64,000 nt of DNA from an uncultured Sangeribacter sp. (GTDB lineage: Bacteria; Bacteroidota; Bacteroidia; Bacteroidales; Muribaculaceae), in the NCBI GenBank assembly GCA_964509225.1, contig CAZDWB010000006.1, positions 4,979 to 68,978 on the forward strand, read 5' to 3'. Of this stretch, positions 25,164-49,091 are shown one piece after another. Every line of letters starts with the position of its first letter. Positions within the stretch are counted from its first letter, which is position 1. The position numbers were made by a program, and so were the translations under genes. Below the pieces are notes generated by a model. The model was not told the DNA's origin. It did no database searches and saw only the letters and a program-made list of their open reading frames with translations.

Positions 25164-25195
25164 GTTGTGTAGTTCGTAATTTTTATATACTTTTG
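25164..25195 (+). promoter_or_regulatory. Bacteroidetes promoter for the pyr operon
   Basis: GTTG at 25164-25167, 20-nt spacer, TACTTTTG at 25188-25195. Confidence 0.6.
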
Positions 25196-25213
25196 CACAA
25201 ATTGAATCCTACA

Positions 25214-25393
25214 ATGAATCTTCGACCGACACTTTTTTCAAAAATAAACGTGTCTTTTTCTCATGATTTGAGGAAAAACGGAGATTTTTCCCCTTTCTCC
25301 ACCGTATATTTTCATAGTTTATTTACAAAACAGGCAGCTCCGGCGAGTTGCCTGTTTTCATATTACTTAAATAATCATGAATTATTTGATTAA
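25214..25393 (+). CDS. Putative pyr leader peptide (59 aa)
   Basis: ATG shortly after the predicted TSS. The ORF runs through U/C tracts and the terminator hairpin and overlaps the pyrC start. Confidence 0.45.
   Translation: MNLRPTLFSKINVSFSHDLRKNGDFSPFSTVYFHSLFTKQAAPASCLFSYYLNNHELFD
25327..25362 (+). terminator. Terminator/attenuator hairpin upstream of pyrC
   Basis: AAAACAGGCAGCTC-cggc-GAGTTGCCTGTTTT: 14-bp stem with one G-U pair, ending in TTTTCATATT. Confidence 0.7.
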
Positions 25394-29157: not shown

Positions 29158-29805
29158 ATGAACTCAAATATATATACCCCTGAGAAAATAGCTGAGGAAT
29201 TACTTAAGATAAAGGCCGTGTTTCTAAGTCCGGACAAACCCTTCACATGGGCAAGTGGGATTAAAAGTCCCATTTATTGCGACAATCGTCTTATTCTCAC
29301 GTCTCCTGAGACGAGAGAAATAGTCGAGAAGGGTATATGCGAAACTATTAGAAAATTTTATCCGGAAGCAGAAGTTCTGATGGGGACCTCTACCGCCGGG
29401 ATTGCCCATGCAGCCATAGCAGGTTATCTGTTGAACCTTCCTATGGGTTATGTAAGAGGATCTGCGAAAGATCATGGTCGCAACAATCGTATTGAGGGAC
29501 GACTTGAGAAAGGTCAAAAGGTAGTTGTAGTAGAAGATCTTATCTCAACCGGTGGAAGCTGTATCGATGTTGTTGAAGCTCTAAGGGAAGCTGGAGCGGA
29601 AGTGCTCGGTGTAGTAAGCATTTTTACTTATGGCATGAAGAAAGGGCTTGAAAAACTGGAAAATGCAAACGTCGAAAATCATTCCCTTTCCAATTTCGAC
29701 ACCCTTGTAGAGGTTGCTGCCAAAGAGGGATATATCTTACCGGATGACGTAGAAAAACTCAGAAGATTTATGAGCAATCCTTCTGACGAATCTTGGATGA
29801 AATAA
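29158..29805 (+). CDS. pyrE: Orotate phosphoribosyltransferase
   Basis: [16 protein letters not shown] and [13 protein letters not shown] (PRPP motif). Confidence 0.96.
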
Positions 29806-29807
29806 AA

Positions 29808-30902
29808 ATGAGAAAAATGAGACATCTTATTGAGCCATACGATTTGACAAAAGAGGAAATAGAATCTATCGTAGACCTGGCATTAGACATCATAGATAAT
29901 CGAGAGAAATATTCGGAAGTATGCAAGGGAAAAAAACTTGCAACTCTGTTCTATGAACCGAGCACCCGGACTCGTCTCAGCTTTACCGCAGCAATGATGG
30001 AATTGGGTGGTAATGTTCTTGGCTTTTATGATGCTAAGAATTCATCAGTAAGTAAAGGAGAGACTGTTGCAGACACATCAAAAGTGATAAGTTGCTTCTC
30101 TGATATCATTGCAATGCGACATTATGAGGAAGGTGCAGCCCTCGTGGCAGCTATGAATGCAACAGTACCGGTTATAAATGCTGGTGATGGCAGTCATGCA
30201 CATCCCACACAGACACTTACAGATCTGCTCACAATCAAAAGAGAAATCGGCAGATTCAATAACATCACCATAGGTTTTTGCGGAGACCTAAAATTTGGTC
30301 GCACAGTCCACTCTCTTATTAAAGCCTTATCTCGCTATGAAGGTGTAAATGTCGTGTTGATTGCTCCGGAACAGCTCCGGCTCCCTGACTATATGAAGGA
30401 GGAAGTATGTGACGCAAATGGTGTTAAATATAAAGAAGTTACCTCCCTCGAAGAGGTGATTGGAGATCTGGATATCCTTTACATGACGCGGGTACAGAAA
30501 GAGCGTTTCCTTGACGAAGATGAATTTGACAGGTTAAAAGACAGTTTTATTTTGGACTCCGAGAAAATGAAACGTGCCCGAAAGGATATGCGTATTCTTC
30601 ATCCATTACCCAGAGTGAACGAGATAACGGTTGAAGTGGATGATGATCCCAGGGCTGCATATTTCCGTCAGGTAGAAAACGGTAAATTTGTAAGAATGTC
30701 ACTTATTCTCACCCTTTTAAATTGGGCAAAAGAAGATAAATACAACACCAAGCTATTAGGGGAAGGAATTGTGTATAATAAATATCATTGTCACAATAAG
30801 CGGTGCATATCCAATATGGAAAATGTTCCTACAATGTTCCGGAAATCCACAGATGGCTCAGACAAAATGCGTTGTGTTTATTGCGAATCTCGCCCTGAGT
30901 AA
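29808..30902 (+). CDS. pyrB: Aspartate carbamoyltransferase catalytic chain with fused C-terminal PyrI-like zinc domain
   Basis: [20 protein letters not shown] and LHPLPR motifs; C-terminal extension CHNKRC...RCVYCE. Confidence 0.94.
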
Positions 30903-30997
30903 AGATTCCGTTTCAAGGTCGGGAGTGACCCAGGATTAGAATCACAAAAGGGAACTCATAAAAATTATGTTAAAAAACATATTTTGGGGCAGAATTA

Positions 30998-31029
30998 TTT
31001 GTGAGTGACAATAAAAATCGGTAAATTTG
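30998..31029 (+). promoter_or_regulatory. Bacteroidetes promoter for the pur operon
   Basis: TTTG at 30998-31001, 20-nt spacer, TAAATTTG at 31022-31029. Confidence 0.72.
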
Positions 31030-31063
31030 CAGTGGATATTGATAGCCGAAAGGAAGCATAATT

Positions 31064-31201
31064 ATGAGGCAACCCCGAAACATATCCCGCAATAACAGTT
31101 TTGCCGGTCCGAAGCCGGGAGAAAAAAAGTTGTGTGTGCGTGTGCGCAGCAAAAAATTAAGACATCAAATAAAAATAAATCAAATCGACAACCGCCTGTA
31201 A
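31064..31201 (+). CDS. Putative pur leader peptide (45 aa: MRQPRNISRNNSFAGPKPGEKKLCVRVRSKKLRHQIKINQIDNRL)
   Basis: Hand translation. AAGGAAG lies just upstream of the ATG, and the stop codon falls inside the terminator hairpin. Below the ORF-track size cut-off. Confidence 0.5.
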   Translation: MRQPRNISRNNSFAGPKPGEKKLCVRVRSKKLRHQIKINQIDNRL

Positions 31202-31233
31202 GAGGGAATCCTCGGGCGGTTGTCGGTTTTTTT
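31184..31233 (+). terminator. Intrinsic terminator/attenuator upstream of purE
   Basis: CGACAACCGCCTG...CGGGCGGTTGTCG long GC-rich stem, inner GAGG-gaat-CCTC, followed by T7 (31227-31233). Confidence 0.85.
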
Positions 31234-31252
31234 AACCATAAGTTTTTTAGAT

Positions 31253-31726
31253 ATGAAAATAGGTGTTGTGATGGGTTCTACAAGCGACTGGCATGTAATG
31301 GCTGGCGCAATTGAGATTCTCGAAAAGTTTGGTATAGAATACGAAAAACGAGTGTTTAGCGCACATCGTACTCCTCAGGCCTTGGTAGAATGGGCTTCAA
31401 ACGCGCGCGAAAACGGTTTTGCCGCTATTATTGCCGGTGCCGGTGGCGCTGCGCATCTGCCAGGTGTAGTAGCTGCTTTCACCTCTCTTCCGGTAATCGG
31501 CGTACCTGTTCTTTCCAAACAACTTATGGGTCTTGATTCTCTGCTTTCAATCGTGCAAATGCCAAGCGGAATTCCTGTTGCCACAGTCGGTATTGACGGA
31601 GCCAAAAACGCTGCCCTACTCGCAGCTGAAATCCTTGCCGTTACTGATATTGATGTTAAAGCAAAAGTTGATCAATTCCGTAAAGAGCAGAGCGAACGAG
31701 TTCTCGCTTCACATCTTCCTGAATAA
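31253..31726 (+). CDS. purE: N5-carboxyaminoimidazole ribonucleotide mutase (class I PurE)
   Basis: [29 protein letters not shown] and [12 protein letters not shown] motifs. ATG at 31253. Confidence 0.96.
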
Positions 31727-39393: not shown

Positions 39394-41517
39394 ATGAAAT
39401 TAACAGATAATAAAGTTTTGGTTATAGGATCAGGTGGTCGTTGTCACGCCATAGTGGATTCTCTTAACCGCTCGTCAAGAGTAGGAAAAATATATTGTGC
39501 TCCCGGAAATGCAGGAATAGCCATGCAGGCTGAATGTGTGCCTATAGGAGTTGAGAATATATCCGAACTGGCTGATTTTGCGAAAAAAAATGAAATAGAC
39601 CTGACGATAGTTGGACCTGAAGCGGCATTAGCAGCAGGTATAGCTGATGAGTTTGAACGAAGGGGTCTAATGATCTTTGGTCCGTCAAAATCCGCAACCC
39701 GCATAGAAAGCAGTAAGGAATTTGCTAAACGTCTGATGATGAAATATGATATACCGACAGGTAAATATCAATCATTTTCAGATTATGACGAAGCCTGGGA
39801 ATATGTTCAGAGTCGTCCTTTACCGGCAGTAATCAAATATGATGGTTTGGCGGCAGGAAAGGGTGTTACCGTTGCAAGTACATATAAAGAGGCGGAAAAA
39901 GCCCTGCGTTCTATGCTGAAAGATGAAACTTTCGGTCATGATAAAGTGATTGTTGAAGAGTATCTGGAAGGTCCGGAGTTCTCTTTGATGTGTTTGGTTA
40001 ACGGGGACAAGATTTATCCCCTCGCAACTGCTCAAGACCATAAACGTGCCTTCGATGGTGACCGTGGTCCCAATACAGGAGGAATGGGAGCCTATTCCCC
40101 TGTGGCGTTTGTCACCGAGGAAGTTCATAAAGATGCTATCGAACGGATAATGCAAAAGGCTGCTTCCGCCATGGTCCGTGAGGGTGTCCCTTTCAAGGGT
40201 ATTTTGTATGGAGGTTTAATTCTCACAGAACAAGGTCCTAAAGTCATTGAATTTAATGCGCGTTTCGGTGACCCGGAAACAGAAGTTGTGCTTCCTCGGA
40301 TGGAATCTGATATTTTAGACCTTTTGGAATCGGTAATAGAGAGCAAGGACTATGAGATAAAATGGTCTGACAAGGCTTGTCTCGGGATTGTTTTGGCTTC
40401 AGAGGGTTATCCTGGCAGCTATGAAAAAGGTATTGAAATAAGACTCCCTAATAATCACGACTCCCTAATCTATCACATGGGTACAGCCATAAAGGACGGA
40501 GAATTAGTGACTGCCGGAGGACGTGTGATGATGACTGTGGGACTTGCGCCAAATTTGGAAATGGCTCGTGATATAGCTTTGTCTGATGCCAAGGAAGTTA
40601 AATGCAGTTCTCTATTTTTCAGAACGGATATAGGAAAAGCGGTTCTGGGGAGCAGTCTGAATAAGGTAATTATCAGTGGAACCGAGATTGCCAGGAAAAT
40701 TAAAGATAGTTTAAAGGAGGAGACAGCTTCATTGAAAGAAGCAACCGGGAAGGTCCCTCATCTGGCAGTTGTACTGGTCGGGAATGATCCTGCGAGTGCG
40801 AATTATGTCTCCACAAAAGGTAAAACAAGCCTTCAGTTGGGATATAAACACACTGCAGTGCATTTCCCGGAAAACGTCAGTGAAGAGGAATTGATCACAA
40901 AAATCACTGAGATGAATGCCGATGAAGATATTAATGGCATTTTGGTGCAACTGCCTTTACCGAGACATATCAATAAAAACAGAGTTCTAAGGACCATAAG
41001 TCCTGAAAAGGATGTTGATGCGTTTCATCCAACGAATATTTCCTCTCTTTGGCTAAAGACCGAAGGGATTCTACCTTGCACTCCCAAAGGGATAATTCGG
41101 ATGCTCGATGAGGGGGGAATACCGATAGACGGAAGTCATGCAGTTGTGATAGGTAGGAGCAATATCGTGGGGTTCCCTGTGGCAAAAATGCTTCTGGATA
41201 GAAATGCAACGGTAACTGTAGCTCATAGTCACACACGAAATCTTGCATCTATTACCCGCGAAGCTGACATTTTAGTTGTAGCCATTGGTAAAGCCAAAAT
41301 GATTACTGCTGATATGGTAAAACCTGGTGCTGCAGTTATTGATGTCGGTATTAATCAAGACACAGAAACCGGTAGAATGTGTGGGGATGTAGATTTCGAA
41401 GCTATGAAAGAGAAGGTTTCTATTATAACCCCGGTGCCCGGAGGTGTGGGACCGATGACAATAGCATGTCTTATGGAAAACACGATGGAATGTTTCCGTA
41501 AACAGAATGGATTATAA
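39394..41517 (+). CDS. purD: Fusion of phosphoribosylamine-glycine ligase (PurD) and methylene-THF dehydrogenase/cyclohydrolase (FolD)
   Basis: About aa 1-420 carry PurD motifs (GSGGR, GLAAGKGV, PNTGGMGAY, EFNARFGDPE, FRTDIG). The remainder carries FolD motifs (KDVDAFHP, PCTPKG, GRSNIVG, TPVPGGVGPMTIACL). One unbroken frame. Confidence 0.93.
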   Translation: MKLTDNKVLVIGSGGRCHAIVDSLNRSSRVGKIYCAPGNAGIAMQAECVPIGVENISELADFAKKNEIDLTIVGPEAALAAGIADEFERRGLMIFGPSKSATRIESSKEFAKRLMMKYDIPTGKYQSFSDYDEAWEYVQSRPLPAVIKYDGLAAGKGVTVASTYKEAEKALRSMLKDETFGHDKVIVEEYLEGPEFSLMCLVNGDKIYPLATAQDHKRAFDGDRGPNTGGMGAYSPVAFVTEEVHKDAIERIMQKAASAMVREGVPFKGILYGGLILTEQGPKVIEFNARFGDPETEVVLPRMESDILDLLESVIESKDYEIKWSDKACLGIVLASEGYPGSYEKGIEIRLPNNHDSLIYHMGTAIKDGELVTAGGRVMMTVGLAPNLEMARDIALSDAKEVKCSSLFFRTDIGKAVLGSSLNKVIISGTEIARKIKDSLKEETASLKEATGKVPHLAVVLVGNDPASANYVSTKGKTSLQLGYKHTAVHFPENVSEEELITKITEMNADEDINGILVQLPLPRHINKNRVLRTISPEKDVDAFHPTNISSLWLKTEGILPCTPKGIIRMLDEGGIPIDGSHAVVIGRSNIVGFPVAKMLLDRNATVTVAHSHTRNLASITREADILVVAIGKAKMITADMVKPGAAVIDVGINQDTETGRMCGDVDFEAMKEKVSIITPVPGGVGPMTIACLMENTMECFRKQNGL

Positions 41518-47204: not shown

Positions 47205-49091
47205 ATGGAGCCACTTAAACACGAATGCGGTGTGGCAATGATAAGACTCCGCAAACCATTGGAATATTTTCAGAATAAATATGGAAGCTGGAGTTTCGGT
47301 CTTAGTAAAATGTATCTCCTCTTGGAGAAACAACATAACAGGGGGCAGGAAGGTGCCGGACTGGCATGCGTGAAACTGGAAGCAAACCCGGGTGAAGAGT
47401 ATATGTTTCGCGAAAGAGCACTCGGCTCTAACGCCATAACTGAAATTTTTGACAATATTAATAAAGTATTGACAGAGACCCCGGCACATCTCCTCTCGGA
47501 TGCTGAATATGCAAAAAAATGTATCCCTTTTGCCGGTGAACTTTACATGGGTCACCTTCGCTATTCCACTACCGGTAAAACCGGTATAAGCTTTGTTCAC
47601 CCTTTTTTACGTCGTAATAATTGGCGTGCAAAGAATTTGGCGATGTGTGGAAATTTTAATATGACAAATGTAGATGAGGTTTTCTCACACATAACCTCTT
47701 TAGGTCAACACCCCCGTAAATATGCAGATACTTATATCATGCTTGAACAGATGGGGCATCGATTGGATAGAGAAGTTGAACGTCTGTTTGTTAAAGCTCA
47801 GAATAAAGGTCTGAAGGGGATGGATATCACCAATTATATAGAGGATAATATAGAATTGGTAAATGTCCTGACTTCTGCGGCTCCTTTCTGGGATGGTGGA
47901 TATGTGTTGTGTGGAATCACCGGTAGTGGAGAATCATTTACACTGCGTGATCCGTGGGGCATTCGTACTGCCTTCTATTATGTGGATGATGAACTGATGT
48001 TAATCGCTTCCGAACGCCCGGTAATTCAAACTGCTCTCGGAGTTGATACGGACAATATTAAGGAACTTAAACCCGGTGAAGCTATTCTTTCCAATAAAAA
48101 GGGGGAGATAAGGGTTGTGCAGGTGCTTGAGCCTAAAGGTTGCAATGCTTGCTCTTTTGAGAGAATATATTTCAGCCGCGGTTCAGACATAGATATCTAT
48201 CAGGAACGCAAGAAACTTGGCAGGACTTTGGTATCACCAATTCTAAAAGCTATTGATTATGACTTGGATAATACAGTAATTTCATTTATCCCCAACACTG
48301 CGGAAGTAGCATTTTATGGAATGCTGGAAGGGTTGGATAATTATCTCAATCGCCAAAAGATCAATAAGATTGAGAAATTAGGAAGTAATCCTTCTCATGA
48401 TGAAATACTTAATATCTTGTCAAAAAGAATCAGAAGTGAAAAAGTTGCCATCAAGGATATCAAGCTCCGCACTTTCATTGCTGAGGGAAATACCCGTAAT
48501 GACATGGCAGCCCATGTCTACGATATTACTTACGGGAGTCTTGTACCATATAAGGATAAACTTGTAGTTATAGACGACAGTATTGTTCGTGGCACAACAT
48601 TAAGACAAAGTATCATCAAGATTCTCGACCGTCTTCACCCCACTGACATCGTTATAGTCTCATCCTCGCCACAAGTGCGATTCCCCGACTATTACGGGAT
48701 AGATATGTCAAGCTTGGACCAGTTCATAGCCTTTAAGGCTGCCATAGAACTTCTTAAAGAGCGGAGAATGAATAAAATATTCCACGAAGTATATGAAAAA
48801 TCAAAAGCTCAAATTGACCTTCCTAAAGAAAAGATGGTGAATTATGTCAAGGAGATTTATGCCCCGTTCACTGAGGAAGAAGTGGCACAAAAGATTACTG
48901 AACTCCTGACACCGGAAGGAATAAATGCTAAAATCAAAATCGTATATCAATCCCTCGAAGGCCTACATCAATGCTGTCCTGATAATAAGGGAGACTGGTA
49001 TTTTAGCGGTGATTATCCCACTCCGGGAGGTGTTAAACTCGTAAATAAAGCTTTTATTGATTATTACGAAAAGCATCTCAAAGATAACTGA
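47205..49091 (+). CDS. purF: Amidophosphoribosyltransferase (long Bacteroidetes type)
   Basis: LKHECG Ntn cysteine, QHNRGQEG, GHLRY, CSFERIYFSRG and VIDDSIVRGTT motifs. Confidence 0.94.
   Translation: MEPLKHECGVAMIRLRKPLEYFQNKYGSWSFGLSKMYLLLEKQHNRGQEGAGLACVKLEANPGEEYMFRERALGSNAITEIFDNINKVLTETPAHLLSDAEYAKKCIPFAGELYMGHLRYSTTGKTGISFVHPFLRRNNWRAKNLAMCGNFNMTNVDEVFSHITSLGQHPRKYADTYIMLEQMGHRLDREVERLFVKAQNKGLKGMDITNYIEDNIELVNVLTSAAPFWDGGYVLCGITGSGESFTLRDPWGIRTAFYYVDDELMLIASERPVIQTALGVDTDNIKELKPGEAILSNKKGEIRVVQVLEPKGCNACSFERIYFSRGSDIDIYQERKKLGRTLVSPILKAIDYDLDNTVISFIPNTAEVAFYGMLEGLDNYLNRQKINKIEKLGSNPSHDEILNILSKRIRSEKVAIKDIKLRTFIAEGNTRNDMAAHVYDITYGSLVPYKDKLVVIDDSIVRGTTLRQSIIKILDRLHPTDIVIVSSSPQVRFPDYYGIDMSSLDQFIAFKAAIELLKERRMNKIFHEVYEKSKAQIDLPKEKMVNYVKEIYAPFTEEEVAQKITELLTPEGINAKIKIVYQSLEGLHQCCPDNKGDWYFSGDYPTPGGVKLVNKAFIDYYEKHLKDN

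Follow-up and report, generated by a model that had tools for sequence, protein, structure and literature searches.

A probable translated-leader attenuator before the pur operon of a Bacteroidales genome, with a possible purine-nucleotide signal and a U-rich counterpart before pyrC

In Escherichia coli, the pyrimidine operon pyrBI is preceded by a 44-amino-acid leader, PyrL, and by an attenuator that works through pausing of RNA polymerase sensitive to uridine triphosphate (UTP). The pur operon of Bacillus subtilis carries a guanine riboswitch, in which the RNA itself binds the ligand and forms an antiterminator, with no translation involved. The trp and his leader attenuators, Bacteroid-trp included, combine stretches of regulatory codons with hairpins that form as alternatives (1:2, 2:3 and 3:4), and a leader that is translated efficiently leads to termination; TnaC and SpeFL have defined arrest motifs beside the stop codon and act on Rho access or on translation. 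To our knowledge, Bacteroidales mostly lack the purine riboswitches and PurR systems of Firmicutes and enterobacteria. In the rph-pyrE region of E. coli, the distance between the upstream stop codon and the attenuator loop sets pyrE expression (PMC2784333). Attenuation by a translated leader responding to nucleoside triphosphates (NTPs) is known for pyrimidine genes, and a purine version is, as far as we found, apparently undescribed: Rfam, Pfam, NCBIfam and the partial body of literature that we searched describe neither a purine leader peptide nor an NTP-sensing purine attenuator. Here we analyse the leader of purE in a 64,000-nucleotide (nt) stretch of an uncultured Sangeribacter sp. (Bacteroidales; the window hereafter), for which an initial annotation had proposed a purine mirror image of pyrBI.

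The segment before purE contains an open reading frame (ORF) that ends inside a strong intrinsic terminator, and it is well supported as an attenuator that combines a translated leader with a terminator and lacks an antiterminator, a description that we consider very probable. All features of this leader lie on the + strand of the window. The ORF (31064-31201) has 45 codons, encodes the peptide MRQPRNISRNNSFAGPKPGEKKLCVRVRSKKLRHQIKINQIDNRL, and appears in the ORF listing and in the output of gene callers, which reported it on two independent contigs. Its ATG (31064) is 7 nt downstream of a purine-rich, Shine-Dalgarno-like AAGGAAG (31050-31056); Shine-Dalgarno-led translation is unusual in the phylum of Bacteroidales. 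Its stop codon, TAA (31199-31201), falls within the hairpin of the terminator (31182-31233), which consists of an 11-base-pair (bp), G+C-rich outer stem (31186-31196 with 31215-31225), an inner GAGG/CCTC stem (31202-31205 with 31210-31213) and a run of seven T (31227-31233), with a local fold of -30.5 kcal/mol. The stop is 13 nt inside the core stem, or 17 nt beyond the start of the stem when this is extended by its A-U pairs. A simple terminator scanner missed the hairpin because the 18 nt between the outer arms, which contain the inner stem, exceed its loop limit of 8. Only 19 nt separate the T run from the ATG of purE (31253-31726), the first gene of a packed run defined by NCBIfam matches and ORF spacing.

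Three more features precede the terminator. A 13-nt purine run, GGGAGAAAAAAAG (31117-31129), holds seven consecutive A (31122-31128); a cluster of six overlapping UGYG motifs, TGTGTGTGCGTGTGCG (31131-31146), overlaps a weak, G-U-rich hairpin with a 5-bp stem (31135-31148); and an A-rich tract (31151-31184) has 24 A in 34 nt, with runs of six and five. Such a 34-mer with 24 A occurs once in the window. Apart from the UGYG motifs, these elements had all been read in the initial annotation (the ORF ending inside a terminator with seven T, the AAGGAAG, the purine run, the weak hairpin and the A-rich tract) and our examination of sequence and fold bears them out. The purine run also contains an in-frame A_AAA_AAG heptamer (31123-31129), the classic slippery sequence for -1 frameshifting; the weak hairpin lies 6 nt downstream, and the -1 frame is open from the heptamer across the terminator and the purE start, to 31314. 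The heptamer is not kept in the three closest relatives (L085-L087 in our numbering of related loci) and is therefore probably incidental.

The layout is widely conserved and recurs in about 45 relatives. Our sample comprised the 44 closest Bacteroidales purE loci of the genome collection, plus loci reached through PurE homologues. A strong terminator lies shortly 5' of purE in every related locus, and in 41 of the 43 loci whose promoter box could be used, an ATG-initiated ORF of at least 30 codons stops between 15 nt before and 20 nt after the point where the terminator stem begins. When these leaders were shuffled by dinucleotides, an ORF ended at the terminator in about 10% of cases. A conserved position of the ORF among relatives had been expected in the initial annotation. 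Checked by eye, L017 and L033 fit the layout and L041 does not. Leader ORFs are 31 to 76 codons long (median 52), and the median position of the stop is 7 nt upstream of the stem (-13 to +17 over the 42 loci with an ORF call), the window being the extreme case with its stop inside the stem. The distance from T run to purE has a median of 35 nt, and a TAnnTTTG promoter box lies between them in 3 of 42 loci. The same architecture is found in Rikenellaceae/Tidjanibacter, in Muribaculaceae and in others; further examples are L085-L087, L102, L104, L106 and L110, the last from a metagenome-assembled genome labelled Bacteroides sp. whose PurE is 72% identical. The leader peptides themselves differ almost wholly from clade to clade, and the common geometry is therefore not merely inherited sequence.

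This turnover also bears on the idea that the ORF simply encodes an ordinary small protein, has its own leaky terminator and plays no part in regulation. The peptide is under some selection, as such a gene would be, but its sequence changes fast between clades while the distance from stop to stem is tightly kept. Moreover, the T run is followed within 19 nt by purE, with at least eleven further biosynthetic genes behind it and no promoter; the terminator lies directly before purE and there is no room for one. We regard this explanation as very unlikely.

Two further observations concern the related leaders. Six of them, from different clades (L003, L005, L006, L009, L018 and L020), have in common, in the last 20 nt before the terminator, the sequence GTG(C/T)GA(A/G)(A/C)ATA(T)A(A)GAAT, which includes the stop codon and lies directly 5' of the stem; it is conserved at the nucleotide level despite differing peptides and is missing from the clade of the window. 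As for transcripts, two metatranscriptome assemblies each have a short contig over the leader of L009 (2694-2905 and 2783-2949) in which purE is not covered. These contigs would fit an abundant terminated leader RNA, but their depth of about 3.5 is too thin, and one of them begins 5' of the predicted promoter. Four mouse-gut metatranscriptomes had no reads on L003, and a search of sequencing runs returned none containing the window.

A long 5' leader with a terminator ahead of a purine operon is the usual site of purine, ZTP or PRPP riboswitches, and we considered whether a conventional riboswitch or another structured RNA forms a terminator/antiterminator switch here, with the ORF incidental. 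Rfam, with its purine, ZTP, PRPP/ykkC, 2'-dG, xanthine and other families, gave no relevant match over the whole window at gathering scores, only noise in the leader region (30850-31320) at E values up to 10 (best hit 22.8 bits, against a gathering score of 100), and nothing beyond one transfer RNA in 14 related loci. This agrees with the initial annotation, which had matched no ZTP, PRPP or purine riboswitch and had advised an Rfam check. Across 42 loci, leaders were no more complementary to the terminator's 5' arm than shuffles were, which gives no sign of an antiterminator (mean z = +0.22; window +0.9); z was below -2 in only two of the 42. RNAalifold on Tidjanibacter leaders returned no conserved structure beyond the terminator. 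A GGGGC...GCCC hairpin noticed in these leaders was set aside, as its changes fall at third positions and codons explain it better. Together with an ORF that is conserved far beyond chance and bears a coding signature, these results already largely refute a riboswitch, to which we give hardly any credence. Comparison of the peptides likewise showed no repeated run of regulatory codons shared among the leaders.

With no antiterminator, the ORF can act on the terminator only through a ribosome that covers the base of the stem. In the mechanism that we favour, transcription would start at about 31035, and a ribosome would load at the ATG at 31064 and translate the 45 codons. If it followed closely behind the polymerase it would cover the 5' arm of the hairpin, which would then not form, allowing read-through into purE and the later genes; if the polymerase had moved far ahead, the hairpin would form and transcription would end at the T run. 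The gap between the two would be set by the supply of purine NTPs. Just before the terminator the polymerase would first meet the UGYG pause motifs, each with G as the following nucleotide, and after them the A runs, so that low guanosine or adenosine triphosphate (GTP or ATP) would lengthen its pauses, let the ribosome catch up and yield more read-through. The pyrBI-like logic proposed in the initial annotation is upheld in its architecture: an ORF with the marks of translation, at a strong terminator before purE, with no antiterminator and no riboswitch match.

Across clades, the distal leader shows two features at the nucleotide level. The last 35 nt before the terminator have a mean A fraction of 0.40 in relatives, compared to 0.24 in downstream coding sequence, and reach 0.63 in the window. 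Runs of at least four A are present in 23 of 42 loci (55%), against 14% of coding control windows. L085-L087 are A-rich in the same tract, and the peptide there is unrelated. A-richness in relatives, the other outcome that the initial annotation had anticipated from an alignment, is thus borne out. TGYG is enriched as well: 185 motifs in 42 leaders compared to 99 ± 8 in shuffles, spread over all three frames, with a density of 5.1 per 100 nt in the 60 nt before terminators, about six-fold above the 0.85 of downstream coding sequence. In the window, the leader has six in 121 nt, when about 0.6 would be expected from the window average of 0.49 per 100 nt. No other nucleotide signal of the distal leader is shared as widely as the UGYG cluster, which is present in every clade. 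T-G-Y-G is said, following the work of Larson et al. in 2014, to be the downstream core of the consensus elemental pause, after a pyrimidine and with G as the incoming nucleotide, which makes the cluster at 31131-31146 a candidate pause site for RNA polymerase. Several such sites close before a terminator would delay the polymerase longer under GTP shortage, a purine equivalent of the pyrBI U tracts. Polymerases ranging from bacterial to mammalian respond to a consensus pause sequence (PMC6336406). The proposal that A tracts sense ATP is accordingly left half standing: A enrichment is common to the relatives, but UGYG points to GTP at least as much.

A second leader of the same layout lies in the window directly before pyrC, the first gene of the pyr operon (25186-25393). 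Its TACTTTTG box (TAnnTTTG) lies at about 25186, and its ORF of 59 codons (MNLRPTLFSKINVSFSHDLRKNGDFSPFSTVYFHSLFTKQAAPASCLFSYYLNNHELFD) opens with the ATG at 25214, crosses a strong terminator (25327-25358) and ends at 25393, inside pyrC; the fold of the leader has a z of -5.1. Promoter box, leader ORF and strong terminator right before the first gene are thus common to both leaders of this genome. The pyr leader differs in lacking the GGATA...GAAAGG element described below, in lacking UGYG, and in an ORF that runs through the terminator into the structural gene. The two are opposite in composition: from 25214 to the stem, the pyr leader is 0.27 A and 0.40 T, with four T runs and no TGYG, whereas from 31064 to the stem the pur leader is 0.40 A and 0.18 T, with three runs of at least five A and six TGYG. 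A generic A tract before terminators would not give both. This U-rich leader is the mirror counterpart that the initial annotation had imagined. Among relatives, only the L106 and L107 loci reach the start of pyrC (L102, L108 and L109 do not), and in L106 pyrC is preceded by a short leader ORF with a C/U-rich tract and by a terminator.

The pair of leaders also helps to judge whether the device merely reports general translation capacity, with read-through following ribosome loading or speed and so linking the operon to growth rate. An ORF that ends at a terminator without an antiterminator would react to any change in coupling, and the presence of the same layout before the pyr operon fits this idea. 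It leaves unexplained, though, why the two leaders of one genome have opposite compositions, and why both the UGYG enrichment and the conserved 5' element are specific to pur; we find it quite improbable.

The promoter and the 5' end of the transcript hold a signal of a different kind. We place a Bacteroidetes-type promoter at 30998-31029, with a -33 TTTG (30998-31001), a 20-nt spacer and a -7 box, TAAATTTG (31022-31029), an arrangement that fits the consensus of Bacteroides promoters and their spacing to the start site. From its position, transcripts should start at about 31034-31036. The initial annotation had announced a consensus promoter: a promoter is indeed there, of the Bacteroidetes type that is conserved in all relatives, and just to the left of the segment it had delimited, but the sigma-70 consensus did not stand. 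Since the window is from Bacteroidales, we replaced the best sigma-70 site of our scan (TGGATA-18-CATAAT, 9/12 matches, with a -10 that adjoins the ATG) by the TAAATTTG box.

At or near the predicted 5' end of the transcript lies a conserved element, GGATATTGATAGCCGAAAGG (31034-31053), that the initial annotation had missed and in which the actual signal could reside. The predicted transcripts of 20 distinct loci, among them the window and its closest relatives, begin with GGATA(T/A/G)TGATAACCGAAAGG, and the ORF begins with ATGAGGCAACCCCGAAACATATCC (31064-31087 in the window, encoding M R Q P R N I S). At its GAAAGG end the element overlaps the AAGGAAG. The 20 nt are nearly invariant across several families whose PurE proteins are only about 75% identical, and in the 815 kilobases (kb) of DNA that we fetched the element occurs only before pur leaders. 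When metagenomes were scanned for the pattern of the two-part 5' motif, one known locus came back in three copies and the other matches were due to chance. In 19 of the 20 element-bearing loci a TAnnTTTG box lies 2-7 nt 5' of GGATA, and this spacing is kept even where hairpin-like inserts of 50-120 nt separate the element from the ATG; the exception is L104, in which the element is about 85 nt from the predicted promoter box. Possible roles of the element are to bind a protein on the RNA, to act as an operator where transcription starts or to serve translation, and it may carry a purine signal of its own.

These properties would fit a signal that enters through the 5' end, a purine-responsive factor binding GGATATTGATAACCGAAAGG and possibly also the related GCAACCCCGAAAC directly behind the ATG. 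Such a factor could be an RNA-bound protein, a DNA repressor at the transcription start or a small ligand; by blocking initiation or translation of the leader it would leave the ORF and the terminator only to convert an untranslated leader into termination. Near-invariance, restriction to pur and a fixed distance from the -7 box whatever the distance to the ATG argue for this. So does GGATAT-TG-ATAACC, which by reading of the sequence is an imperfect palindrome (5 of 7 symmetric pairs). GGATA (31034-31038) can also pair with TATCC in the ORF start, in the only candidate for an aptamer helix, one that would enclose the ribosome-binding site and the ATG; the paired state holds in 88% of cells of the alignment. 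Yet the covariation score of this helix is 0, its sequence being invariant, and the 5' fold is not more stable than shuffles (z = +0.7). In L104, a synonymous ATA to ATT change breaks the GGATA/TATCC pair and keeps R-N-I-S. About half of the loci lack the element altogether and retain ORF and terminator, and it has no Rfam match. We consider it unlikely, though not negligibly so, that the purine signal enters by this route. Some of the rivals can coexist with kinetic coupling of ribosome and polymerase, this one among them.

A further place for the signal would be the peptide. The 16 Tidjanibacter leaders align without internal gaps over 51-53 codons, and in their conserved blocks (W-G-L-E, L-A-A-E-K-C-A and A-K-x-A-T) most changes are third-position and synonymous, with exchanges such as GGG/GGA/GGT/GGC, GCA/GCT/GCC/GCG, TGC/TGT and CTT/CTG/CTC/TTG. 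Nonsynonymous change (pN) was lower than synonymous change (pS) in the three Tidjanibacter groups, at 0.24 against 0.49 in group A (C-terminal two-thirds), 0.26 against 0.54 in group B and 0.18 against 0.26 in group C, and also in Muribaculaceae B (0.41 against 0.63). In Muribaculaceae A both values were 0.22. In shifted frames, pN and pS were about equal (for instance 0.27-0.29), with a ratio of about 1. A deficit of pN in frame that vanishes in shifted frames means that the frame of the ORF is read, and suggests that the amino-acid sequence matters to some degree in several lineages. The initial annotation had expected a peptide without conservation, and in several clades this was not the case. 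Across all clades there are also loosely shared features: a start resembling R-N-I-S, a basic patch, W-G and one aligned Cys (Cys making up 5% of residues).

One can suspect from these data that the peptide itself is the sensor, a purine-related metabolite in the ribosome tunnel altering how long the ribosome dwells at or near the stop codon and covers the base of the terminator, as in the metabolite-sensing arrest peptides TnaC and SpeFL. Purifying selection on amino acids with a fixed length in Tidjanibacter, similar coding signals in three other clades, the loosely common features just listed and a stop codon kept 1-13 nt before the stem are all in line with this. However, the residues beside the stop are not conserved and the C-termini vary between clades, one Muribaculaceae clade has no coding signature, and the clade of the window shares only the first 8-9 residues. 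Part of that start, R-N-I, is kept at the nucleotide level (CGA AAC ATA) and not only as amino acids. Nor does the peptide belong to a known family: searched against a set of 5.8 billion proteins, the leader peptide of the window matched only itself, and six leader peptides searched against Pfam and NCBIfam gave no family. A peptide sensor seems improbable to us.

Several points weigh against kinetic coupling to purine NTPs. We infer the occlusion of the hairpin by the ribosome, the pausing at the motifs and the response to NTPs from sequence, and pausing of the Bacteroidales polymerase at UGYG would be an assumption carried over from other polymerases. The UGYG enrichment overlaps the Cys codons and the conserved peptide blocks, and need not signify pausing. 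Terminators are commonly preceded by A tracts, many relatives are moderately A-rich (a fraction of 0.16-0.49 over the last 45 nt), and the contrast in composition between pyr and pur leaders, strong in the window, is weak in L106. Kinship among the related loci means that their counts overstate independence. Finally, pure kinetic coupling requires neither an invariant 5' element nor conservation of the peptide at the amino-acid level, and each of these suggests another input.

Purine-NTP-dependent pausing as the signal (GTP at UGYG, ATP at the A runs), which rests on composition and on the pyr twin, is somewhat short of an even call for us. Purine-NTP sensing is plausible but unproven. The attenuator taken together with a purine-NTP signal is the best explanation that we have, and our confidence in it is evenly balanced. 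More tentatively, the pur leader would be a purine counterpart of pyrBI in several Bacteroidales families, with a U-rich pyr twin, both nucleotide pools being read through the speed of the polymerase and the 5' element and the conserved peptide adding a second input; we see this fuller picture as possible but less likely than not.

Downstream of the leader, the same-strand run reaches 53491 and contains purE, purL, purC, purM, purN, purH, a purD-folD fusion, purB, purA, guaB, guaA, a purF-like gene, carA and carB. Upstream, on the same strand, lie pyrC, pyrK, pyrD, pyrF, pyrE and pyrB, the last fused to a PyrI zinc domain. The two runs are operon-like, and gaps in the pur run are all below 80 nt. 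Altogether, about 20 nucleotide-synthesis genes occupy one strand between 25377 and 53491, in an order partly common to L102 and L106. The window PurE is at best 79-89% identical to the homologues found, of which the nearest named are from Tidjanibacter (Rikenellaceae) and Muribaculaceae. Some of the products are unusual. The PurD-FolD fusion (39394-41517) has 707 amino acids, and L107 also has such a fusion. PyrB (29793-30902, 361-369 amino acids) carries a C-terminal remnant of the PyrI zinc domain, recognised by Pfam PyrI_C on the called product. The PurF-like protein (47205-49091, 628 amino acids) scores 119 bits against a cutoff of 350 for the amidophosphoribosyltransferase model, over residues 103-367 only, and is thus a PurF of atypical or extended form. 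An A/U-rich hairpin, ATGTTAAAAAACAT, followed by ATTTT (30960-30985), lies in the interval from pyrB to the pur promoter, and L087 has a similar sequence. The hairpin may serve the pyr operon as a weak terminator; any leakage would bring pyr transcripts to the pur attenuator as well.

If the proposed mechanism is true, one element would switch 12 to 14 genes in a single step, and would do so in abundant gut bacteria, given its occurrence in Muribaculaceae and Rikenellaceae. It would extend NTP-sensing attenuation, long treated as a speciality of enteric pyrimidine genes, to purines and to a distant phylum. The leader peptide and the 5' element would be two new, testable regulatory parts, and the presence of pur and pyr leaders in one genome offers a natural swap experiment.

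How does this leader compare to the systems introduced above? With TnaC and SpeFL it shares a conserved short peptide and a ribosome position near the stop codon that would control downstream termination, but no motif is conserved here beside the stop. Like the trp, his and Bacteroid-trp leaders it joins a translated leader to a terminator; unlike trp and his, it has no codon run and no antiterminator, and translation should prevent termination. The guanine riboswitch of B. subtilis occupies the same place and likely has the same task, to end transcription early, ahead of purE, while purines are abundant, whereas the leader described here has no Rfam match and no antiterminator. The likeness to pyrBI is greater: the ORF is of similar length, a terminator precedes the first biosynthetic gene, there is no antiterminator, the ribosome would stay close behind the polymerase, and directly upstream of the terminator come runs of the end-product nucleotide and a pause region, here a candidate one. 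The differences are that the operon makes purines and has A runs with UGYG, where pyrBI makes pyrimidines and has U runs; that it belongs to Bacteroidales with another type of promoter, where pyrBI is enterobacterial; that in relatives the ORF usually stops just before the hairpin, where the pyrBI leader runs through; and that the peptide shows partial conservation of its amino acids, the 5' end bears an additional invariant element, and the response to NTPs is one that we infer. The rph-pyrE attenuator also has a stop codon near its hairpin, comparable to the median of 7 nt from stop to stem in the relatives, although its upstream frame is the full-size rph gene, while here it is a dedicated leader of 31-76 codons in another pathway and another phylum. 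Given where the relatives place their stop codons, the logic of the pur leader would appear even closer to rph-pyrE than to pyrBI.

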